Shown here: positions 18,297-40,520 of the stretch, one piece after another
How the letters are laid out: every line of letters begins with the position of its first letter
Position numbering within the stretch: position 1 is the stretch's first letter
Assembly: GCA_025058515.1 (NCBI GenBank)
Contig: JANXDW010000026.1
Span: 18,332-82,331, forward strand
Length of the DNA: 64,000 nt
DNA from: Aigarchaeota archaeon
GTDB lineage: Archaea; Thermoproteota; Nitrososphaeria_A; Caldarchaeales; Wolframiiraptoraceae
Direction of reading: 5' to 3'
Notes under the pieces: model-generated
What the model saw: only the letters and a program-made list of their open reading frames with translations
What the model was told of the DNA's origin: nothing
The model's database searches: none
Program-made: the position numbers and the translations under genes

Positions 18297-18899
18297 TTGA
18301 GTCAAGAAGAAAAAGAAAAACCTAAGATCTTAGCAGAGCTCAAAGAGTATCTTGAAAGAAGGATAAGCGATCTTGAGAAAGAGTTGGAGCTTCTTAGATT
18401 GATGGTAGAAGTAGTTGATGAGAAGCTTGTAGAAAAGAGTTTCAAGAAGCCGAGCTTAACCCCAGAAGTTAAAGAAGTTGTTAAAGAACCTCTTATGAAA
18501 GGTGAACCACAAGCCTCAATGACCTCAGAACTTGAAGAAGGAAAGATTAGAATTTTGAAAGCCAAGACAGGAGAGGTTTTAGCCAGAGTTATCATCTCTC
18601 CAAATGAGTTAAGGTTTATCATTGATCCTGAGGTAAAGGTTACAGTAGATACTAAGCCTTTCTCATCTTTCCTAGTTAAGAAAGTTCTCGAGGCCATGAG
18701 TAGGATGGATGGCGAGAGAGTTAAGAAGGGGGCGCTACCCCCTGGGCAAGAACTTAGTTACAATATAATCCAAGATGGAGATAGGGTTAAAGAGATAGTG
18801 GTAAGAAATTTCAGAGAAGAGTATAGGATTAGAGAGATAGTGAATGCTATTAGGTGGACTCTTGAGACTATATTTGAGAAACAGTCTACTCACCAATAA
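18297..18899 (+). CDS. Hypothetical protein with N-terminal coiled coil
   Basis: 200-aa uninterrupted ORF in AT-rich DNA with a TTG start and heptad-like EKELELLRLMVEVV. No family recognised. Confidence 0.3.
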   Translation: MSQEEKEKPKILAELKEYLERRISDLEKELELLRLMVEVVDEKLVEKSFKKPSLTPEVKEVVKEPLMKGEPQASMTSELEEGKIRILKAKTGEVLARVIISPNELRFIIDPEVKVTVDTKPFSSFLVKKVLEAMSRMDGERVKKGALPPGQELSYNIIQDGDRVKEIVVRNFREEYRIREIVNAIRWTLETIFEKQSTHQ

Positions 18900-26736: not shown

Positions 26737-27699
26737 GTGAATCGTAGAGAAGAGAAATTAGTTGTTATAGCTTTAGGAGGCAACGCTCTATTAAGAAGAG
26801 GTCAGAATGGAACTTTTGAAGAACAGTATGAGAACGTAAAGCAGACATGTAAGATCTTAGCTGACCTTATTGAGAATGGATATAAGCTAGCAATAACACA
26901 TGGTAATGGTCCACAGGTAGGAGCTACTATACTTAGGCATGACGCTGGTTTCAGAGTTTATGGAGTTCCTCCATTCCCCATGGATGTATGCGGGGCTGAG
27001 ACACAAGGTTTCATAGGATATATGATCCAGCAAGCATTAACAAACGAGTTACTAATGAGAGGAATCAAGAAGAACGTCATCACAATTATTACAAGAGTAG
27101 TTGTAGATAAAAATGACCCAGATTTTTCTAATCCAAGTAAACCAGTTGGAGCATTTTACACAGAGAAGGAGATGATGGAGATCAAGAAGATTCATCCTGA
27201 ATACATCTTTAAAGAAGATAAAGCTAGAGGAGGTTGGAGAAGGGTTGTCCCATCTCCTGATCCGAAATACTTGGTGGAGATGCCTGGGATAAAAGCGTTA
27301 GTAGATGCAGGGTACATAGTGATCTCAAGTGGTGGAGGAGGAATCCCAGTAATAGAAGAGAATTCTGAGATGAGAGGTGTTGAAGCAGTTATAGATAAAG
27401 ACTTAGCTGGAGAAAGACTCGCAACATCTCTAGGTGCAAGTAAATTCATAATTCTAACGGATGTTGATGGAATATACGTAGACTACGATAAGTCTACCCG
27501 AAGGAAGATAGACGTTATAAGAGTTGAAGAATTGAAGAAGCTTTACGATGAGGGGCATTTCCCACCAGGTAGCATGGGTCCAAAAGTTAAAGCAGCTATA
27601 AGATTCATTGAATCTGGAGGAGATGAAGCTATAATTGCTGACTTAAAAGACTTGATGAATGCGATAAGAGGTAAGGCGGGAACACATATAATCCGATAA
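26737..27699 (+). CDS. arcC: Carbamate kinase
   Basis: N-terminal KLVVIALGGNALL, amino-acid kinase fold, 320 aa. A GTG start with a TTTAAAT element about 25 nt upstream suggests a leaderless mRNA. Confidence 0.8.
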   Translation: MNRREEKLVVIALGGNALLRRGQNGTFEEQYENVKQTCKILADLIENGYKLAITHGNGPQVGATILRHDAGFRVYGVPPFPMDVCGAETQGFIGYMIQQALTNELLMRGIKKNVITIITRVVVDKNDPDFSNPSKPVGAFYTEKEMMEIKKIHPEYIFKEDKARGGWRRVVPSPDPKYLVEMPGIKALVDAGYIVISSGGGGIPVIEENSEMRGVEAVIDKDLAGERLATSLGASKFIILTDVDGIYVDYDKSTRRKIDVIRVEELKKLYDEGHFPPGSMGPKVKAAIRFIESGGDEAIIADLKDLMNAIRGKAGTHIIR

Positions 27700-27783
27700 T
27701 AAATAGATCAATATATTACATACTTTACTGACATTAATGATAAAATCTATTTATTTTCAATTTTTACAATCTAGTAGACAGTA

Positions 27784-28434
27784 ATGTTGATTAAAGCAGT
27801 AGTATTCGATCTAGATGGCACCTTACTAGTTCATAAACTAAGATTGAGAGAAGCAAAAGAGAAGTTTCTAGAGAAGTTAGAAGAATTAGGCTTGAAAGGC
27901 TCATGGATCTCTACTGATATGCCATTAGCACATATCTTGAGTGGACTAGATGAAAAAGATAGAGCACTAGCCTTTAATATATTAGATAATGTATTCGAGC
28001 AGTTTGAGACTAAAGCTGTAGAAGAAGCTGAGTTAAGAGAAGATGTAAGAGAAGTCCTCACCTTCTTAAAGAAGTTGAAGATTAAGATGGCTATTGCTAC
28101 AAATAATGGTAGAAAGAGTGTTGAATCGATTTTAAGAAAGATGTTGTTAGAAGAGTTTTTCGATGTAGTAGTGACGAGAAATGATGTTCAAGACCTTAAG
28201 CCTAATGGTAAAATGTTACTCGAGACCGTGAAGAAGCTAGGTGTAAATATAGAAGAAGTAATTCACATAGGAGATACTACTTATGATGTCTTGGCTGCAC
28301 ATGAAAATGGTATAAAGTGTATAGCTATTACAGGAGGAGCACATAGTAGAGAACTACTTCTATCTTCAAACCCTGAATTTATAGTGGATAGTTTTAAGGA
28401 GATACCTGCGATAATAATGAATTTACAGAAATAA
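27784..28434 (+). CDS. HAD-superfamily hydrolase (phosphatase)
   Basis: Motif I VVFDLDGTL, and motifs III and IV (K...GDTTYD). Confidence 0.7.
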   Translation: MLIKAVVFDLDGTLLVHKLRLREAKEKFLEKLEELGLKGSWISTDMPLAHILSGLDEKDRALAFNILDNVFEQFETKAVEEAELREDVREVLTFLKKLKIKMAIATNNGRKSVESILRKMLLEEFFDVVVTRNDVQDLKPNGKMLLETVKKLGVNIEEVIHIGDTTYDVLAAHENGIKCIAITGGAHSRELLLSSNPEFIVDSFKEIPAIIMNLQK

Positions 28435-28500
28435 CAAAAATTGTAGTGTTTCTTAACCTTAATATGTTTCTGGAAATGTTATAATAGATTAGGGATAATA

Positions 28501-29274
28501 ATGTGGAAGAAGTACGCGGTGCTCATCGTCGTGGCCATTCTTCTCGCGACTGCATACTTACTATTCACCATAAATATTCTATCTATCCCAGATATAGTAG
28601 GTCAAATACTTCAAGAATTTAGGAATATAATTTTAACAGAGGTAGAACCTGAATATGTAAGATTGATCATTAATGTATTAGAAGTAGATTTAAATCATTC
28701 TTTAAATTACGTTGGTAATGAGACGGGTACTCCCTATCCTCTTATGAACACTTACGTTGTACTAAGTGGAGAATTTAGATCAACTGATAGATATGGTAGA
28801 GCATCATTCATTGTGCCGAAAGGTATCCATTCACTAATGGTAGTAAGATATGGTAGAACATGGACTACAAATATAGATGTCAAATCAGATGGTGAGATAA
28901 AGATCATATTCTACTTGTTCAGAGTTGAGGCTTCAAGTATAGAAGTTAATCCTAAACCATTTGAAGGATTAAGTAGGGTGAAGATGTTATTCAATCTCCC
29001 CAGCTTTGGAGAATATTATGTAGGTAAACCTACAATAACGTATTATACTCCTTGGGGTCAATTGAGAATATATTATGGAGATGCGGAAGTCATTATCGGG
29101 ACAGATATAGAAGAAGTATGGAAAATTGTTGATATAAGTTTCTTGAGGAAAGAGATAGGTGGAACAAGAATCGAGTTTATAGAAGATGTTAAAGGTTTTC
29201 CTACATACGTTTTACCATGGTATACATTTCTCCCTGTAGTTAGAGTAGAGGTAGAAGAAGAATGGTACCAGTGA
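28501..29274 (+). CDS. Membrane-anchored extracellular protein (N-terminal TM, beta-rich domain)
   Basis: N-terminal hydrophobic helix. The segment VVLSGEFRSTDRYGRASFIVPKG resembles CarboxypepD_reg-like modules. It is the first gene of a co-oriented cluster. Confidence 0.35.
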   Translation: MWKKYAVLIVVAILLATAYLLFTINILSIPDIVGQILQEFRNIILTEVEPEYVRLIINVLEVDLNHSLNYVGNETGTPYPLMNTYVVLSGEFRSTDRYGRASFIVPKGIHSLMVVRYGRTWTTNIDVKSDGEIKIIFYLFRVEASSIEVNPKPFEGLSRVKMLFNLPSFGEYYVGKPTITYYTPWGQLRIYYGDAEVIIGTDIEEVWKIVDISFLRKEIGGTRIEFIEDVKGFPTYVLPWYTFLPVVRVEVEEEWYQ

Positions 29275-29732
29275 TAGATCTTGAAACTGCATTCTGGATA
29301 ACTTTTGATACAGCTCTAGCTTCTATAGCAATTTATCTACTGATTAAGTATACCAAGCTAAAGAAGAATACGGGAACTACTAAATCCGATGCACAAGCCA
29401 ATCCTCTCTATAAGAGTCTAGATATTAGATCCTACTTCTCTACATATGATAAGAAAAGAGCAGTTGCAACATTATTCAATGATATAATCTCAGAGATAAC
29501 TAGAGTCAACGGGTTAACTATACCTAAAAGTTCAACTATGAAAGAAGTCTTAATAAGGCTTGATAATACGATTCCAAGATACACGTATGTCTTACTCCAA
29601 GACATGTACGAGCTTTATGAACGTATCAGGTTTGGAAATCATGATCCAACTGATGAAGAAATCAATGAATTCGTAAATAAAATAGAATTATTTACTGAGT
29701 CTTTCAGACGACCAGTAGGTGTAGAGAATTGA
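29262..29732 (+). CDS. DUF4129-like membrane-anchored protein (MoxR-operon associated)
   Basis: N-terminal TM helix, then a C-terminal block KEVLIRLDNTIPRYTYVLLQDMYELYERIRFG resembling the DUF4129 conserved region. It lies upstream of MoxR and DUF58. Confidence 0.4.
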   Translation: MVPVIDLETAFWITFDTALASIAIYLLIKYTKLKKNTGTTKSDAQANPLYKSLDIRSYFSTYDKKRAVATLFNDIISEITRVNGLTIPKSSTMKEVLIRLDNTIPRYTYVLLQDMYELYERIRFGNHDPTDEEINEFVNKIELFTESFRRPVGVEN

Positions 29733-29904
29733 ACATAACTCTAACTACTTTGATCATCGCTATAATAACGATTGCTTTATCAATTCTCTTACCTAGGTTA
29801 CCGAAGTCTGTAGATAAATATAGAGAAGAACATGTTGCAAAAAAGAAGGATAAAAGAAAGATGGGGAGAGACGTAATTCTAGATGAGTTGCGTAAGAGTA
29901 GAAG

Positions 29905-30870
29905 GTGAGAATATTGGTTAACGATTATCTTTTCATTAAAAATATTGCTGAGAAGCTTGAGTCGAATATACATGAAATAATAGTTGGGATGGGGGAAGCT
30001 ATTAGAAGCTTACTCATAGGATTATTATCCGAGGGGCATATACTAATTGAAGGACCTCCTGGGACGGCTAAAACATATCTTGGACGAGTTTTCGCAAACT
30101 CTCTAGGACTTGAATATAGAAGAATACAGTTTACCATAGACCTCATGCCCAGCGATATTACTGGATCTCTAATCTATAATAGAGCGACTGGGACTCTAGA
30201 GTTTAGACCTGGCCCTATATTTGCTAATGTCGTTTTAGCAGATGAGATAAACCGGGCTTCCCCTCGTTCTCAATCAGCTCTTCTTGAATGTATGCAAGAG
30301 AAGCAAGTAACTATCGAGGGCGTAGCCTATCCGCTTCCAAGACCATTTTTAATTATCGCTACCCAAAACCCTATAGAACTTGAAGGGACGTACCCTCTAC
30401 CAGAAGCTGAGCTCGATAGATTCTTGATAAGAGTCTTCATAGACTATCTGGATGCTTCATCAGAATTAGAGATACTTAGTAAGAAACAGCTACATGGTGA
30501 GAAGATCGATGTTGAAAAGATTGCAAGTTTAGAAGAGATACTTAAAGCAATAGATTTAACTAGCAAAGTATATGTTGATAGATCTATTCTCGAGTATATT
30601 GTTAAGTTAGGTAATGCGACTAGAAAACGTGAAGACATCTTACTGGGGGTGAGCCCTAGAGGTGAAGTATATCTTCTATACGCTTCAAAGGCCGCAGCTG
30701 CAATCGATGGCAAGTCTTATGTTACTCCAGACCATATCAAATCAGTAGTTAAATTAGTATTCAATCATAGAATCATCTTGAAGAGTAGAAGTGTCAACCC
30801 TATGACTTTACGTCGTGAAATTCTTAAGATATTGGATGAGATCGTTGAAGAGGTAGAGCCCCCTAGATGA
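29905..30870 (+). CDS. MoxR-family AAA+ ATPase
   Basis: Walker A GPPGTAKT, Walker B VVLADEINRA, and a length of about 320 aa typical of MoxR. Confidence 0.85.
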   Translation: MRILVNDYLFIKNIAEKLESNIHEIIVGMGEAIRSLLIGLLSEGHILIEGPPGTAKTYLGRVFANSLGLEYRRIQFTIDLMPSDITGSLIYNRATGTLEFRPGPIFANVVLADEINRASPRSQSALLECMQEKQVTIEGVAYPLPRPFLIIATQNPIELEGTYPLPEAELDRFLIRVFIDYLDASSELEILSKKQLHGEKIDVEKIASLEEILKAIDLTSKVYVDRSILEYIVKLGNATRKREDILLGVSPRGEVYLLYASKAAAAIDGKSYVTPDHIKSVVKLVFNHRIILKSRSVNPMTLRREILKILDEIVEEVEPPR

Positions 30871-32072
30871 AGTTAACAGTTCAAGCTGTAAGAATATATC
30901 AGTATTCTGCAATATTCTTCTCAGCAACATCCTTGTTGTTAATTAACCATCCCGCAATCATCTTAACACCTATATTTATAGTACTCACATTAACACTCTA
31001 CGTAACCAGAAGCTTAAAAAAACTTAAAAGAATAGATGAGAACTATTTCAAATCATCTCTAACCATCTCTCCCAATATTCTACTTGTTGGTGAGAAAGCA
31101 ACAGTAAGAGTACACGTCAAATGTAATGTCTCAGATAAGTATAGAGGAGAAGTTCAAGTAATTCTTGATGAAGGAGTAAAAATAGATGATGGAAGAAGTA
31201 GCTGGACTGGAATCATAGATTCTAATCAAGAGATCTTATTAGAATTCATCGTTAAGATTGGAAGAGCAGGATTAATTAAGATTGGACCGATAATACTAGT
31301 GGTTAAAGATGATCTTGATTTTGTAGCTAAAACTATTAAATTGGATAATGTAGGGATAATATTCTCATTCCAAGAACCTTTAAGAACAAGAGGAGTATTA
31401 ACAACATCTGCGATAAGAGGTTCTATTCAGCCTGGTTACACACTTAATCCATTCATAGGTATCGATGAAGAATATAGAGAAAGTGTAGAGAGTCTACAAT
31501 CATCTTTAAAAAAAGTTGATTGGAGGAGGACAGCTAGAATAGGAGGAGAGGAGGTTTATGTTAAAGATTACGCTAAGAGAAGATCTTCAGACATCATTAT
31601 AGGAGTCGGGAGTGGACTAGACCTAGACATACCTTCTATTGGAAATATCAAAACATGGGTAATGCAGATAATAATCTCTTATGCTTTACATTATCTGAGA
31701 GAAGGCTCAAGAATGTGGATCCTAGAATATGATGAAGAAAAGCCAATTTACATTCAATTAAAACATACTTATGGAGAGTTAATCTTAAAAGATGAGGTGG
31801 AGCCTTCAGGAGGAATAATCATATACATTTCTAGATTAATAATGCTAAAAGAATTAGATTTCTTAAATAAGAATATTGATCTTCAGAGGTTTAAACTGGA
31901 AGTACTTATATTGGATATCTCAGATGAAGTCATAGAAATTGTAAAAGAGGATGCGATAAACTATGAGGTTGAGAGATTGAGAAAACTTAAGACAGAATTA
32001 AGAGATTCTGTTAAGATAGTGAAGCTTAAAGATCTTTTAGAAGGCCTCCGAAGGAGTCTCGCTTCTAGGTGA
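30867..32072 (+). CDS. DUF58-family protein (MoxR partner, vWA-like fold) with N-terminal TM helices
   Basis: Block KKVDWRRTARIGGEEVYVKDY matches the DUF58 IDWK.SAR.G.L.VRE core. Its start overlaps the MoxR stop. Confidence 0.6.
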   Translation: MKLTVQAVRIYQYSAIFFSATSLLLINHPAIILTPIFIVLTLTLYVTRSLKKLKRIDENYFKSSLTISPNILLVGEKATVRVHVKCNVSDKYRGEVQVILDEGVKIDDGRSSWTGIIDSNQEILLEFIVKIGRAGLIKIGPIILVVKDDLDFVAKTIKLDNVGIIFSFQEPLRTRGVLTTSAIRGSIQPGYTLNPFIGIDEEYRESVESLQSSLKKVDWRRTARIGGEEVYVKDYAKRRSSDIIIGVGSGLDLDIPSIGNIKTWVMQIIISYALHYLREGSRMWILEYDEEKPIYIQLKHTYGELILKDEVEPSGGIIIYISRLIMLKELDFLNKNIDLQRFKLEVLILDISDEVIEIVKEDAINYEVERLRKLKTELRDSVKIVKLKDLLEGLRRSLASR

Positions 32073-32080
32073 ACTCATGA

Positions 32081-32794
32081 ATGAATACTTCAACGATGAT
32101 CTTAACTTTAATCTTGTTGTCACCTTACATCTACACTCTACTCTATATATTGTCTAAGTTTACCCAGATAGATTACTTTACATTAATTGGGCTATTCTCT
32201 CTCATATCTTTAGCTATCTCGAAATATTCTTCAATAATACTCTTTTCTTTTACGATAGTTCCCTCCATTACTTGTTTCGGATTACTCGTAAGCGGATATC
32301 CTCTCCCACTGATAGGGTTAGCCACAGGCTTCCTCATGGCCTTCCCCCTCTTCACACTATTAGGAGCTCTATATGAGAATCGATCTGAGAACATTGTATT
32401 AAGCTACCTCATCGCTTTAATCCTGAACATCTCTCTCTTAATCAGTTCTGAGGTAGAGAAGCCTTCTCCCACAAATTTTATTTCAACCTTAATATCGAGA
32501 GTTCCTAGAACCATACTTCAAGGAGAAGGCTATACACTAACTGAATATGTGAACAGCATCTTCACAATCTTAACCGCTTTATCTTGTCTATCGTTAATCT
32601 TCATTATTATTAAGAGAATTGAGCCTAGCTTCCCCAAAAGCTTAAGAGACCTGAATCCCTTGATACTCTCTACTCTCATAACCTTAACTCTATCTTTACT
32701 AACATATTTCTGGGTCTATAGCAACTTCATAGTAATCTCTTCAATATTGATTATAATGGTATACGTTATCATATCTTTAAAGATGGCGAAATAA
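32081..32794 (+). CDS. Polytopic integral membrane protein, function unknown
   Basis: 237 aa with 6-7 hydrophobic helices. Confidence 0.4.
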   Translation: MNTSTMILTLILLSPYIYTLLYILSKFTQIDYFTLIGLFSLISLAISKYSSIILFSFTIVPSITCFGLLVSGYPLPLIGLATGFLMAFPLFTLLGALYENRSENIVLSYLIALILNISLLISSEVEKPSPTNFISTLISRVPRTILQGEGYTLTEYVNSIFTILTALSCLSLIFIIIKRIEPSFPKSLRDLNPLILSTLITLTLSLLTYFWVYSNFIVISSILIIMVYVIISLKMAK

Positions 32795-32795
32795 T

Positions 32796-34433
32796 ATGGA
32801 GATGAAGATTTACAAGTCCTTCTTAATAATTCTGATAATCTCCTCAACACTATTTTTACATACTTCTCTTGCAGAACCTCAAGCTAAAGATCCATCGGTA
32901 ATGATTGGTTTCAGTAGAAATTATTTATTTCCACTACTCGATGGTGGAATACTATATTTTGAGAAGGGAGAACAGCTCTGGGCAATGGTTATAGAAGAGA
33001 AAACTACATTGAGTTTAATCTCTCCTTCAAAAGATATTAAAACATATGATCTCTCTCCTCTTCAACCAACTTTAATCAAAACTTTTAACGATGATGACCC
33101 AGTTGGAGAATGGATTCTAAATAATAATGGAAGAAACTTAACTATTATCCTATCTGAGAGAGCTCAACTATCTAATTTTGTCCAACTAAATTATAGACTA
33201 CAAAAAGGAATGCTTCTGATCGATATAGCTAATGGTAACCAGAGTGCATTCATTATCACAGATGTAGGGGGAAGGGTACTCATCCCAGCTGGAACTGAAT
33301 TAACGATCATGCTTAAAGATCTCAACTTAGTAGAGGGTGAATATGATGGAGAGATCGTTGTAGACCTAGTTTATCGGGATGAGTTTAATTATTCAGGAAG
33401 ATTGAATGGTCGCCCATACCTAGTTAAGATGGAGTCAATTGCTGGTAGAGTTATCGGTAAGATTGAGGGAGATACCGTGAAATTATCTATTCCTAATCTA
33501 CACACAGTAGGGTCTGGAGGCATAATACCTGTTAGGATGGGAGAAGCAATATTGAAAGTTAAACATCCCTTGAGCGTTGAGCCTAGAAGTTTAGAGAAGA
33601 ACAATTCATCAAGTCTCGATCTTCAAAGAATTGAGATATACGTTGTTGATAAGAGCTTCATGAGATGGGCTGGTGTGAGAACTGCGAAATCAGTTATGAT
33701 AAATGTTAGAGAAGCATTAAACAAGACTTTAAGAATTCTCTCATCTAATGGAAGCAGTTCGGGAATCTCTTACTCTACAGTTCCTATATCATCAGTTCTT
33801 TTTTATGAGCCTAGACTTAATAGAATTATTGAGAATATATCTGTAGTGGTGGATGGGCGGCAATCAGTAGTTGTAGATGATATAGCGTATATTCTTTTAT
33901 CTGATAGTGAAACCGCAGTCCCTAACTTGGTTTCAGATGGTGGTGAAGAGATCTCAGTACATGCTTATTTAAATCAATTCAAAATCTATAGTGGTAAATT
34001 TAAGATCAGTAGAGGAGAATTAAAAACTATTCCTGTCCAGCTACATTCTATCAATATACAAGCATTTCTCCCAAATAATGAGAGAGCTCTTAGTGGAGAG
34101 CTCAAAATAAATGGTTCTAGATTAAACTATTTGAATGGTTCTGGTTCAGCTCTTTTACCAACTGGAACCTACAGGATCGAATTCATTATTGATGATTGGT
34201 ATGGAGGATCTGTTTTAAAGATCTCGGGAGATACCACTATAAGAATTACATTAGTAAGAAAGCTTACTATATTGGATGTTCTCAGAATAATAGCTGGATT
34301 AGAGGTTGCCATAGTATTATCCACTGTAATCTTTATTATTAGATATAAGAAGAAGATCCAGAAGAACATAGCTGTAACGAGATCTCCAAATCTTTCCAAC
34401 CATATTATAAGCTTCTCCTCTATACCGAGCTAA
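32796..34433 (+). CDS. Secreted or surface protein with N-terminal signal peptide and C-terminal TM anchor
   Basis: 545 aa. N-terminal hydrophobic segment, beta-rich body, C-terminal helix LEVAIVLSTVIFII followed by RYKKKIQK. Confidence 0.4.
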   Translation: MEMKIYKSFLIILIISSTLFLHTSLAEPQAKDPSVMIGFSRNYLFPLLDGGILYFEKGEQLWAMVIEEKTTLSLISPSKDIKTYDLSPLQPTLIKTFNDDDPVGEWILNNNGRNLTIILSERAQLSNFVQLNYRLQKGMLLIDIANGNQSAFIITDVGGRVLIPAGTELTIMLKDLNLVEGEYDGEIVVDLVYRDEFNYSGRLNGRPYLVKMESIAGRVIGKIEGDTVKLSIPNLHTVGSGGIIPVRMGEAILKVKHPLSVEPRSLEKNNSSSLDLQRIEIYVVDKSFMRWAGVRTAKSVMINVREALNKTLRILSSNGSSSGISYSTVPISSVLFYEPRLNRIIENISVVVDGRQSVVVDDIAYILLSDSETAVPNLVSDGGEEISVHAYLNQFKIYSGKFKISRGELKTIPVQLHSINIQAFLPNNERALSGELKINGSRLNYLNGSGSALLPTGTYRIEFIIDDWYGGSVLKISGDTTIRITLVRKLTILDVLRIIAGLEVAIVLSTVIFIIRYKKKIQKNIAVTRSPNLSNHIISFSSIPS

Positions 34434-34472
34434 ATTTTTTATCTAGTGATGATAGCTAGTAGATGATAGAAT

Positions 34473-35867
34473 GTGTCTGAATTCAGAAAAATAGTCCCTG
34501 ATACTAGTATAATAATAAATGGTAAACTTCTAGAATTACTTGAAAAAGAAGATTTAATGAACTGTGAAATAATATTTCCAGTAGCTGTAATTGATGAGCT
34601 TCAGGCTCAGGCATCTAAGGGGAAAGAGATAGGTTTTAGAGGATTAGAACAAGTGAAGAGGATTAGAGAGTTAGCTGAGCGGAAGGGTTATGTAATTAGA
34701 TTCGCTGGAGAGAGACCAACTTTAGAAGATATCAAACTTGCACGTAGTGGGAGAATAGATGCGATAATTAGAGATTTTGCTAAAGGTGAGCACGCTGTAC
34801 TATATACATCGGATTACGTTCAAGCACTTGTAGCAGAAGCTGAAGGAGTACAAGTCAATTATATAGAAGCTTATGAGAAGAAGCCTAAGCTAATATTCGA
34901 AGATTACTTTACAGCAGATACAGTAAGTGTACATCTAAAAGCAAATCTATCTCCATTGGCCAAGAGAGGAAAACCAGGAAGATTCATATTAGTTAAGCTT
35001 AGAGAAGAACCTCTCACAGAAGAAGAGTTAAACAATATGATAAATGAGATACTTGAGACGGCTAGAATAGGAGGAGAGGGAAGCATAGAGTTATTGAAAA
35101 GTAATGCTATGGTAGTTCAGCTTGGTCGGTATCGAGCTGTTATCACTAAACCACCCTTCTCAGATAGTCTAGAGATTACGATATCTAGACCTATGACTAA
35201 GCTCACTCTCCAAGATTACAAATTATCAGAAAGGTTTGTGAAAAGATTAATGGAGAGAGCTGAAGGAATACTGATTACTGGTTCACATGGATCAGGGAAA
35301 ACTACTTTCGCAAGTAGTTTAGCAGAATTCTATGTTTCACAAGGGAAGATCGTTAAAACATTTGAGTCTCCAAGAGATCTACAAGTCGGTCTTGAGGTTA
35401 CTCGTTATGGACCTCTAGAAGGAGATTTTGAAAAGACTGCAGAGTTAATGCTACTAGTTAGACCTGACTACATAATATTCGATGAGATGAAGAAATTGAA
35501 AGATTTCCAGATTTTCGCAGATCTGAGGTTGGCCGGTATAGGTATGGTTGGAGTAATCCATTCAAGCGACCCAATCGATGCCATAGAGAGATTTATCAAT
35601 AGATTAGAACTTGGATCTATACCGAAGATAATAGATACAGTAATCTTTCTCAAAGATGGAGAAGTTAAGAAGGTGTATGAACTCGATCTAGTTTTAAAAG
35701 TTCCAACAGGGATGCCCTCATCAAATCTAGTTAGAAGTGTAATAGAAGTAAGGGATTTTGAGACAGGTAAATTAGAGTACGAGATATACACATATGGAGA
35801 GAGACATATTATAGTCTCTCTTGAAAAAAGTAGTAGTAATGAAGAGTTAGAGAACACCGGCACTTGA
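34473..35867 (+). CDS. PIN-domain / PilT-like ATPase (COG1855-like; PIN plus P-loop NTPase plus C-terminal KH-like region)
   Basis: N-terminal PIN-like acidic residues (IVPDTSIII), Walker A ILITGSHGSGKTT, Walker B IIFDEM. Confidence 0.6.
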   Translation: MSEFRKIVPDTSIIINGKLLELLEKEDLMNCEIIFPVAVIDELQAQASKGKEIGFRGLEQVKRIRELAERKGYVIRFAGERPTLEDIKLARSGRIDAIIRDFAKGEHAVLYTSDYVQALVAEAEGVQVNYIEAYEKKPKLIFEDYFTADTVSVHLKANLSPLAKRGKPGRFILVKLREEPLTEEELNNMINEILETARIGGEGSIELLKSNAMVVQLGRYRAVITKPPFSDSLEITISRPMTKLTLQDYKLSERFVKRLMERAEGILITGSHGSGKTTFASSLAEFYVSQGKIVKTFESPRDLQVGLEVTRYGPLEGDFEKTAELMLLVRPDYIIFDEMKKLKDFQIFADLRLAGIGMVGVIHSSDPIDAIERFINRLELGSIPKIIDTVIFLKDGEVKKVYELDLVLKVPTGMPSSNLVRSVIEVRDFETGKLEYEIYTYGERHIIVSLEKSSSNEELENTGT

Positions 35868-35946: not shown

Positions 35947-36363
35947 ATGGTGAGGGCTGGAAAGACTTCTATAATAGAGTACTTAAAAGAAAAGGCTAGT
36001 AGCTTAAGAACTGAGACAGCTATAACTATATACTCAATATTCTTAATATTCTTCATCATATTTCTTCTAAGTGGTTTGATTTATTCTCTTACTACTGAGG
36101 AACCTATACCGATAGCTTTTCTACCAACTGGATCGATCAGAGTATTTCTCTGGAGTATTAATGCACAGAGCCATGCAGAGACTATCGTTATAGCTCTATA
36201 CTATTTAATGGGTGGAGGGGGAGTCTTACTGTACGTAAATGCTATTACCAAACTACGTAATCCTAGGACTACCAAGTACATGCTCTTCTTTAGCTTCTTA
36301 CTCATACTACTAGCTGGAATAGGGATCTATTCAGCATATATCTCTAAGTTTACTCCACCTTAG
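35947..36363 (+). CDS. Small polytopic membrane protein, unknown function
   Basis: 138 aa with 3-4 TM helices. Its 3' end overlaps the convergent KaiC/RadB-like gene by 14 nt. Confidence 0.35.
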   Translation: MVRAGKTSIIEYLKEKASSLRTETAITIYSIFLIFFIIFLLSGLIYSLTTEEPIPIAFLPTGSIRVFLWSINAQSHAETIVIALYYLMGGGGVLLYVNAITKLRNPRTTKYMLFFSFLLILLAGIGIYSAYISKFTPP

Positions 36364-37036
36364 AACTAGGTTCACCTACACCACTTTCATTAATGATGAA
36401 ATACGCTGGACCAGTTTTTTCAGGCTTCTCTAAAAATAATTCTCTAAAACCTTTAGAGCCTATTGTCAACTTGATAATCCATCTTGCCCAGTGGCTCAAT
36501 ATTCTGTATGCTACAGCTTTTCTATTTTCTTGCTCAGGTAGATCGTGTACTTGACCTATCAATACTACAAGAGATTTATCTCTTGTAGTTAGCTCAGATA
36601 ACATAGCAACTTGCATGGCCAATCTCTTATAGATTGGTAGATCAGACCTCACTTCTCCATACATCTCTATCCTATGTTGATGTGTAAAATCGTCTAATAC
36701 TATTATGTCGAATAGTTTCTCTGAATTGTAGAGATGTAGGATAAAGTCTTCTTGATCTTGGAAATCTTGAATCATTCTTATTGATAGCTTTGAAGGATCT
36801 AGTGACCAAGATTCTAAGATTTGTAGAACTCTTTGAGGATGAAGTCTTATAGAACAATCTAGGAAGAGTGGTCTTAAACCATTTCTTATAGCTGAAGCAC
36901 ATAGGGTTAAAGCTAAACTCGTCTTTCCAGACTTCTCTTCACCGTATATGAAGTAGAGTTCTCCTAGTTTGAATCCTCCGAACAATAATCTATCGATTCC
37001 TTTAACATAGGTTGGTACAAGATCTAAGGTTGACAC
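36350..37036 (-). CDS. RecA-superfamily ATPase, KaiC/RadB-like single domain
   Basis: GIDRLLFGGFKLGELYFIYGEEKSGKTSLAL (Walker A) and Walker B IIVLDD. 228 aa. Confidence 0.55.
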   Translation of the reverse strand: MSTLDLVPTYVKGIDRLLFGGFKLGELYFIYGEEKSGKTSLALTLCASAIRNGLRPLFLDCSIRLHPQRVLQILESWSLDPSKLSIRMIQDFQDQEDFILHLYNSEKLFDIIVLDDFTHQHRIEMYGEVRSDLPIYKRLAMQVAMLSELTTRDKSLVVLIGQVHDLPEQENRKAVAYRILSHWARWIIKLTIGSKGFRELFLEKPEKTGPAYFIINESGVGEPSSKVE

Positions 37037-40399: not shown

Positions 40400-40520
40400 T
40401 GCGGGGGGTGGGATTTGAACCCACGAACCCCTACGGGATTCCCCACTTTAATTCAGGGGTTCTCATCTCTTATTTGAGAACCTGAACCCTGCGCCGTTGA
40501 CCAGGCTTGGCTACCCCCGC
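40400..40520 (-). tRNA. tRNA-Leu (anticodon CAG) with two predicted introns
   Basis: Minus-strand sequence GCGGGGG-TA-GCCAAGCCTGGTCAACGGC-G-CAGGG-TTCAGG[about 21-nt insert]CCCTG-[about 15-nt insert]-TCCCGTAGGGGTTC-GTGGGTTCAAATCCCAC-CCCCCGC-A. The acceptor and T arms are perfect, the D arm is Leu-type, the variable arm is long, and the discriminator is A. Confidence 0.8.

Follow-up and report, generated by a model that had tools for sequence, protein, structure and literature searches.

A membrane-associated MoxR module of Caldarchaeales related to the transglutaminase-DUF4350-MoxR-DUF58 cluster

The 64,000-nucleotide (nt) stretch of DNA analyzed here (the window; positions 18,332 to 82,331 of contig JANXDW010000026.1, assembly GCA_025058515.1, from an Aigarchaeota archaeon) carries seven consecutive plus-strand genes, g1 to g7, encoding a MoxR-family AAA+ ATPase, a divergent DUF58 protein, a DUF4129-like protein, and four membrane or exported proteins. 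We propose, with a probability of roughly 0.6, that these seven proteins form a membrane-embedded MoxR system derived from the transglutaminase/DUF4129-DUF4350-MoxR-DUF58 cluster that assembles or remodels a cell-surface complex, and that the adjoining gene for a PIN/PilT-like ATPase (g8, PINA) is separate from it. To our knowledge, few prokaryotic gene pairs are as widespread as the MoxR-DUF58 operon, for which no function or client has been agreed.

Packing and conservation of the seven-gene module

Eight plus-strand open reading frames (ORFs) occupy positions 28501 to 35867, with overlaps at 29262/29274 and 30867/30870 and gaps of 1 to 39 nt from 32072 to 34473, all as described in the initial annotation. 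The count of eight given there is correct and includes a conserved ORF of 59 amino acids (aa) at 29729 to 29908 (g3), which had been left unlisted and which occupies the apparent 172-nt gap upstream of the MoxR gene. From g1 to g8, the spacing is, pair by pair, -13, -4, -4, -4, +8, +1, and +39 nt. Within g1-g7, four neighboring pairs thus overlap at their start and stop codons and the other two are 8 and 1 nt apart, and 39 nt separates g7 from PINA. The GC content of the region is uniform (0.34 to 0.36). Judged by spacing and motifs, g1-g7 (28501 to 34433) appear to form one operon-like unit.

The genomes closest to the window by g5 (49 to 61% identical) belong to Caldarchaeales, including Candidatus Geocrenenecus, or are metagenome-assembled genomes (MAGs) labeled Nitrososphaeria or Nitrososphaerales. 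The window is accordingly assigned to the chromosome of an uncultured, thermophilic hot-spring archaeon of Caldarchaeales (Aigarchaeota type). A contig scan with the g5 alignment reached 5 close species, and wider contexts were collected via MoxR homologues. Loci with g1-g7 are designated type I, and loci with a four-gene core (L013 to L016) are designated type II. The genes g1-g7 were found, with their order kept, in four differing flanking contexts. The full synteny running from carbamate kinase and HAD genes through the module to PINA, g9, and RadB was found in L001/L005, L008, and L009, and the portions of it covered by contigs were found in L002 to L004, L006, and L007. The more distant Caldarchaeales-type MAG carrying L010 has HAD upstream and PINA downstream; its MoxR is 70% identical to that of the window, and its accessory proteins are 25 to 31% identical. 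In L011, g1-g7 are flanked by ThiC/PIN upstream and MntP downstream, with no PINA. In two Bathyarchaeia MAGs (L012 and L017), hypothetical genes lie upstream and purM lies downstream. In L019, a rhomboid gene lies downstream, MoxR is 56% identical, and g7 matches that of the window with E values of 7e-26 (BLAST) and 2.5e-74 (hidden Markov model, HMM). Across these contexts, pairwise E values for g1-g7 range from 1e-5 to 1e-70 and MoxR is 56 to 70% identical.

Together, these comparisons indicate that the accessory proteins are co-inherited with MoxR while all the flanking genes differ. The membrane and exported genes, whose absence from the MoxR triad of relatives had been named beforehand as evidence against a common system, are kept with the triad in the four contexts. 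The initial annotation had asked for a check of the eight-gene order in relatives; the order of g1-g7 is conserved, and PINA is missing in most other contexts. Conservation in several lineages places the arrangement far outside what chance would produce.

Type-II loci retain a MoxR-DUF58-g6-g7 core, in which the g7 homologue is exported and has ~510 aa. A single transmembrane (TM) protein of 111 to 131 aa replaces the genes upstream of MoxR, and an ABC-type permease (BPD_transp_1) and an exported PPC-domain protein are added after the g7 homologue. A member of the g7 family follows MoxR-DUF58-g6 in every locus examined. These two added genes occupy 12557 to 14723 in L013, 10998 to 13150 in L014, and equivalent positions in L015 and L016. 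The permease (469 to 482 aa) is solitary, with neither an ATPase nor a binding protein encoded next to it, and much of its N-terminal portion is extracytoplasmic; the PPC-domain protein has a C-terminal TM anchor.

Upstream of the module, genes for a carbamate-kinase-like protein (AA_kinase) and a HAD hydrolase are located at 26737 to 28434 on the plus strand. The pair is syntenic with the module in L001 and L007 to L009, HAD alone is so in L010, and neither gene is in L011, L012, or L019. These genes are neighbors rather than parts of the module.

Protein families and predicted topology

The product of g4 (29905 to 30870) is unambiguously a MoxR AAA+ ATPase, as initially annotated. It matches the Pfam models AAA_3 (200.9 bits for a cutoff of 27; E = 8e-60) and AAA_lid_2 (65.4 bits for a cutoff of 22.7), as well as PDB entry 2r44 (E = 1e-75). 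The translation displays an intact Walker A motif (GPPGTAKT, G50 to T57) and an intact Walker B motif (VVLADE, residues 109 to 114, with D113-E114). The NCBI annotation of this gene starts 3 codons downstream (318 aa). The start of g5 overlaps the stop of the MoxR gene by 4 nt, so that a DUF58/vWA partner is directly adjacent; such a neighbor is the criterion of Snider and Houry for the MRP subfamily, according to the passage of PMC12067865 that cites it.

The g5 product (30867 to 32072; 401 aa) is a divergent DUF58 protein. The initial annotation considered its assignment to DUF58 unambiguous, which does not hold for the sequence score (12.5 bits, below the Pfam PF01882 gathering score of 23.4), and a profile search of g5 against PDB sequences returned no match. 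The assignment stands on other grounds. The same weak DUF58 match was displayed by 11 of 11 close homologues (best E = 0.0099), two of which also match the BatD DUF11-like Ig model. Distant full-length homologues from L014 (39.9 bits) and L019 score above the DUF58 threshold in Pfam, and BLAST connects g5 to the homologues of L019 (E = 8.5e-10) and L013 (E = 1e-5). The DUF58 signature is present as DWRRTAR...VKDY, aligned to IDWKAMAR...IKRFE. The AlphaFold2 (AF2) model, one of the two such models considered (g5 and g7), comprises a TM hairpin, an immunoglobulin (Ig)-like β sandwich of the DUF11/BatD type, and a vWA-like α/β domain, and it matches the VWA domain of NorD in the NorQ-NorD complex and the metal ion-dependent adhesion site (MIDAS) domain of Rea1. 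The DxSxS motif of the MIDAS is degenerate in g5, its position being occupied by GVGSGL in the window clade and by LRGNPL in L019; the motif is retained in L013 (VDCSSS) and L018 (LDASYS).

The protein encoded by g2 (29262 to 29732; 156 aa) has a single N-terminal TM helix, predicted to be followed by basic residues, and a cytoplasmic DUF4129-like helical domain. The claim that a DUF4129-like protein precedes MoxR is supported by the homologues, since 8 of 8 type-I g2 homologues matched the model (best E = 1e-6), and is less secure for the window copy, which is below the threshold of Pfam PF13559 (20.6 bits for a cutoff of 24.8; E = 4.7e-4). BLAST also aligned g2 with the C terminus that follows the TM segment of the L018 transglutaminase protein (33% identity, E = 5e-4).

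Topology predictions for g1, g6, and g7 agreed with the initial description of membrane and exported proteins flanking the triad. The g1 product (28501 to 29274; 257 aa) is a membrane-anchored, extracytoplasmic, β-rich protein with a TM helix at residues 6 to 24 and the β domain outside. Its homologues in L010, L011, L012, and L019 are 27 to 33% identical (E = 1e-11 to 1e-33). A match to Cyclophil_like2 was discarded, being weak (E = 0.06; E = 0.0014 in L011) and limited to 2 of 8 homologues. The g6 product (32081 to 32794; 237 aa) is polytopic, with ~7 TM helices and a conserved P..(L/I)I.LA.GY motif, and has homologues throughout the type-I and type-II loci. The g7 product (32796 to 34433; 545 aa) consists of a signal peptide, an ectodomain of ~475 aa, a C-terminal TM helix, and a short basic tail. 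The ectodomain is all β, with approximately five β-sandwich domains, the C-terminal one resembling transthyretin and CarboxypepD_reg. Residues 78 to 137 of g1 align to residues 428 to 486 of g7, within this transthyretin-like sandwich (hhalign probability of 58%, E = 1e-4). A test for a MIDAS motif had been suggested for the 545-aa protein; g7 contains neither a MIDAS nor a vWA fold, the confident parts of its AF2 model being all β. A profile search of 1.84 billion proteins retrieved 42 cluster representatives of the g7 family, nearly all of 480 to 545 aa. A protein of a Nitrososphaerota MAG is identical (100%) to g7, and the next relative is from a Candidatus Caldarchaeales MAG. Neither the g1, g6, and g7 proteins of the window nor 29 of their homologues could be assigned to a Pfam or NCBIfam family, and profile searches with g1, g6, and g7 against PDB sequences returned no match.

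The micro-protein g3 (29729 to 29908; 59 aa, TTG start) begins with a TM helix and ends in a highly basic tail, in which 15 of 38 residues are K/R, and its gene overlaps both g2 and the MoxR gene by 4 nt. Homologues beyond close relatives were undetectable by BLAST. Similar ORFs of 51 to 77 aa with like architecture and position were found in at least seven other loci (L001, L002, L008, L010, L011, L012, and L019), and g3 was accepted as a real gene because its position, size, and architecture are conserved.

The density of N-glycosylation sequons is 8 to 20 per 1,000 aa in g1 and g7 (8 to 18 for g1 and 20 for g7 of the window) and 0 to 3 per 1,000 aa in MoxR, g5, g2, and other cytoplasmic proteins. 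These densities fit the location of g1 and g7 outside the cell and that of the DUF58 and DUF4129 domains inside.

Proposed function and alternative explanations

From the genes present, their homologies and shared order, and the folds and predicted topologies of their products, as described above, we infer the formation of a physical complex, its direction of action, and its client. On the cytoplasmic face, topology and analogy suggest that the MoxR AAA+ hexamer would dock on the membrane-tethered Ig-vWA adaptor g5. MoxR may also engage cytoplasmic parts of the single-pass proteins, namely, the DUF4129-like domain of g2 and the basic tails of both g3 and g7; polytopic g6 may provide the membrane core, and the β-sandwich ectodomains of g1 and g7, putatively glycosylated, would be outside the cell, in keeping with the predicted topologies. 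By analogy with NorQ/NorD, RavA/ViaA, and Rea1-MIDAS, ATP hydrolysis by MoxR, relayed via the vWA-like adaptor, would assemble or remodel the surface complex, with g7, and probably also g1, as the client or output. Since the MIDAS is lost, binding by the adaptor would have to use another surface. The initial annotation had proposed a maturation or insertion system for a surface protein that included the PIN/PilT ATPase. A dedicated surface-protein role is plausible because g1-g7 recur in order across the four contexts; the ATPase is excluded from it.

Several points weigh against this proposal. The MIDAS is lost in every type-I copy of g5, so that the canonical mode of substrate binding by MoxR-vWA pairs cannot apply unchanged. 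The AF2 models of g7 and g5 are moderate (predicted local distance difference test scores of 58.6 and 64.5, respectively) and give a poor account of the central part of g7 and of the g5 linker. Operon status is supported by spacing and motifs rather than by transcripts. On present evidence, g1 and g7 as clients are indistinguishable from g1 and g7 as structural subunits. Finally, the organisms are uncultured MAGs.

A bolder proposal, which we regard as rather doubtful, is that g1-g7 encode an unrecognized archaeal envelope machine, in which cytoplasmic MoxR, acting via a MIDAS-less, membrane-tethered vWA adaptor and a single-pass DUF4129 partner, would drive conformational changes in, or assembly of, extracellular β-sandwich proteins across the membrane. 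If true, this would be an "inside-out," ATP-powered device for surface remodeling or secretion that uses three families without described relatives, and the MoxR-DUF58-DUF4129 triad would for the first time have a defined set of clients.

Another unlikely alternative is that the complex serves to secrete or translocate cargo whose genes are located elsewhere, g1 and g7 being structural outer parts rather than clients. The majority of the components are membrane or extracytoplasmic proteins, the type-II relatives add a BPD_transp_1 permease and an exported PPC-domain protein, and an apparatus of this kind was predicted for related arCOG01314 neighborhoods (Makarova et al., 2015; PMC5898192). 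However, neither a channel-forming family nor a known translocase family was detected in Pfam and NCBIfam scans of the module proteins, g6 has only 237 aa, and the module has no linked gene for a candidate cargo. It also lacks the GldG-like DUF4350 protein, which was the basis of the secretion idea.

It is very improbable that the system comprises eight genes, with PINA and MoxR jointly powering the maturation of surface proteins. The PINA gene (34473 to 35867; 464 aa) is co-oriented with the module, starts 39 nt downstream of it, and adjoins it only in the window-type lineage (the window, L001, L002, and L006 to L009) and in L010. The initial annotation was right about the PIN domain, the PilT-like ATPase core, and the distance of 39 nt, but not about membership in the system. 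In L011, L012, L017, L019, and L013 to L016, PINA does not adjoin the module. Where present, it travels with the small membrane protein g9 and a RadB-like recombinase gene. The g8 protein is the orthologue of PINA from S. islandicus (PDB 5f4h, E = 2.5e-110), a Holliday-junction branch-migration ATPase that acts with Hjc and Hjm (PMC6061704, PMC8775617). It scores 645.7 bits with NCBIfam PRK13764 (cutoff of 340) and 423.5 bits with the PINA equivalog model, under the cutoff of 800. Like the S. islandicus protein, g8 has an N-terminal PIN domain and a PilT-like ATPase core, and a RadB-like gene is located nearby; unlike it, g8 is shorter (464 versus 505 aa) and has no C-terminal KH domain, the Hjm-binding part of the S. 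islandicus protein (PMC6061704). No KH remnant was found elsewhere in the window, where a tblastn search with the 605-aa protein of L002 covered residues 1 to 450 only.

Motifs at the boundaries of the module point in the same direction. A TATA-like element, TTAATA, is located at 28459..28464 on the plus strand within AACCTTAATATG, ~40 nt 5' of the g1 start, and L001 has an identical CTTAATAT box at an equal distance before g1. At the motif level, this element is the candidate promoter of the module. The 39-nt spacer between g7 and PINA opens with a T6 tract / TTTTTTAT box (34435..34442, plus strand), directly 3' of the g7 stop and 31 to 38 nt before the PINA start; L001 and L002 have a ATTTTTAT box upstream of PINA at the same distance. 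Five plus-strand runs of at least five T are present in 8 kb, two of them within the two intergenic gaps. The T6 tract / TTTTTTAT box likely combines the end of the module transcript with the TATA box of PINA; by its motifs, the module would end at g7 and PINA would be promoted separately. These statements on promoters are tentative because counts of TATA hexamers discriminated only weakly between genes preceded by long gaps (14 of 36) and those preceded by short gaps (2 of 15). By sequence criteria, PINA is a neighboring DNA-repair gene, putatively with its own promoter, outside the system, because it is absent in most other contexts and is preceded by its own promoter-like element.

The length of PINA varies among relatives: L001 has the same short form as the window, L002 has a 605-aa form with a KH_1 match, and L010 has a 515-aa form. 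Downstream of PINA, a 138-aa protein with three TM helices (35947 to 36363, plus strand) matches the membrane region of OST3/OST6, a family of eukaryotic oligosaccharyltransferase subunits (E of ~6e-6; 25.9 bits for a cutoff of 27), as do six orthologues. Its gene is always located beside the RadB-like gene (36350 to 37036, minus strand in the window), which it overlaps convergently. Further downstream, a 121-nt tRNA gene at 40400 to 40520 on the minus strand (Rfam, 43.6 bits) was missed by ARAGORN and is probably an intron-containing archaeal tRNA gene.

Ternary conflict systems combining MoxR and vWA were reportedly described by Kaur et al. in 2020. A role of the module in biological conflict or defense of this type is exceedingly unlikely. 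The g4 protein does pass the Pfam bpMoxR model (46.6 bits), but its AAA_3 score is far higher (200.9 bits); the module includes no β-propeller, effector, or vWA-MIDAS partner, and PADLOC models yielded sub-threshold P-loop noise only. In addition, the flanks are housekeeping genes, base composition is uniform, and the module is vertically conserved at one position within Caldarchaeales. Nor is it credible that the accessory genes are unrelated neighbors held by mere synteny with a MoxR-DUF58 pair, since, although close relatives share long-range order that includes carbamate kinase, HAD, PINA, and RadB, the seven genes stay ordered, with overlapping stop and start codons, while all flanks change in four contexts, at distances at which the accessory proteins are only 22 to 33% identical.

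The proposal of a membrane-embedded MoxR system comprising g1-g7 narrows the hypotheses on such systems. The window variant is a compact, strictly co-inherited set in which both the transglutaminase and the MIDAS appear dispensable. The conserved core would consist of MoxR, the DUF58 scaffold, a TM-borne cytoplasmic DUF4129 domain, and a polytopic protein, with the small, lineage-specific g7 family, plus g1, as the obvious candidate client. Concrete proteins are thereby named for interaction modeling or heterologous reconstitution, and a false lead is removed, the adjoining PIN/PilT ATPase being a recombination protein.

Relation to known MoxR systems

The locus had been regarded as a non-canonical MoxR context. 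This view was not sustained, as similar archaeal neighborhoods, combining arCOG01314 (DUF4350), MoxR, an Ig-vWA protein, Ig-like or S-layer-like proteins, and TM proteins, were described by Makarova, Galperin, and Koonin in 2015 and predicted to encode a secretion or membrane-remodeling complex (PMC5898192). A MoxR and Ig-vWA pair accompanied by TM proteins and Ig-like exported proteins, as in Table 2 of that study, is found in the module. In addition, the next tier of MoxR relatives (53% identical), represented by L018 (3223 to 11463 of an archaeal metagenome contig), belongs to a classical transglutaminase-DUF4350-MoxR-DUF58-polytopic cluster. This outgroup displays the parts lost in the window variant: an exported transglutaminase of 1,158 aa, which contains Big_1 and CarboxypepD_reg repeats, a TM segment, and a DUF4129-like tail, and a DUF4350/GldG-like protein. 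These are followed by MoxR, a DUF58/VWA protein whose MIDAS is intact, and a polytopic protein.

The module shares with this system an AAA_3-type MoxR followed by a DUF58 protein with a TM hairpin, Ig, and vWA domains. Upstream, both have a TM segment with a cytoplasmic DUF4129-like element; a polytopic membrane protein is encoded downstream in both, and both include exported CarboxypepD_reg/Ig-like β-sandwich domains on single-TM anchors. They differ in that the DUF4129 element is a stand-alone protein of 156 aa in the module and the tail of the 1,158-aa transglutaminase in L018, and in that Pfam has no models for the families of g1, g6, and g7. Moreover, the DUF58 protein of the module lacks a MIDAS, the conserved g3 protein is additional, and the DUF58 domain is cytoplasmic according to sequons and topology, whereas it is secreted in the model of Makarova et al. 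Transglut_core, which the initial annotation had listed for verification, and DUF4350/ABC_transp_aux had no match in the module proteins or in the 29 g1, g6, and g7 homologues scanned; Transglut_core and DUF4350 are both present in L018. Because the tail of the L018 transglutaminase matches g2, the module looks like a derivative of the classical system, in which the DUF4129 tail would have become a separate gene and the transglutaminase and DUF4350 ectodomains would have been replaced by noncatalytic β-sandwich proteins. We found no publication that treats DUF4129, DUF58, and MoxR together.

The Bat (aerotolerance) operon of Bacteroides, Leptospira, and Borrelia has the order MoxR-DUF58-BatA-BatB-BatC-BatD-BatE. 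VWFA proteins adjacent to MoxR have been reported in Borrelia (PMC5700661). As in the Bat operon, MoxR-DUF58 is followed by membrane proteins in the module, and BatD is analogous to g7 in being exported, with DUF11/BatD-like β sandwiches and a C-terminal anchor. Unlike the Bat operon, the module has neither BatA/BatB vWA membrane proteins nor TPR proteins, and it is found in archaea, with a single membrane. No Pfam match to VWA, TPR, or BatD was found in g1, g2, g6, and g7, the BatD match being limited to the Ig domain of two g5 homologues. The PFNA cluster of Bifidobacterium (pkb2-fn3-MoxR-DUF58-transglutaminase; PMC8430577, PMC12067865) likewise ties MoxR-DUF58 genetically to a surface-exposed β-sandwich protein, in this case FN3. 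The module differs from it by the lineage, by the absence of a kinase and a transglutaminase, and by the unrelated sequence of the surface protein.

MoxR-class motors with vWA adaptors include NorQ/NorD, RavA/ViaA, CbbQ/CbbO, and Rea1-MIDAS (PMC9976466, PMC9489729, PMC6987120). In comparison to models of the NorQ/NorD type, the adaptor of the module is membrane tethered and has lost the MIDAS residues, and the predicted clients are envelope proteins, not metalloenzymes. We know of no defined mechanism for the arCOG01314 neighborhoods, the Bat operon, or the PFNA cluster. The g1-g7 module is a lineage-restricted variant of an already described, functionally unsettled system.

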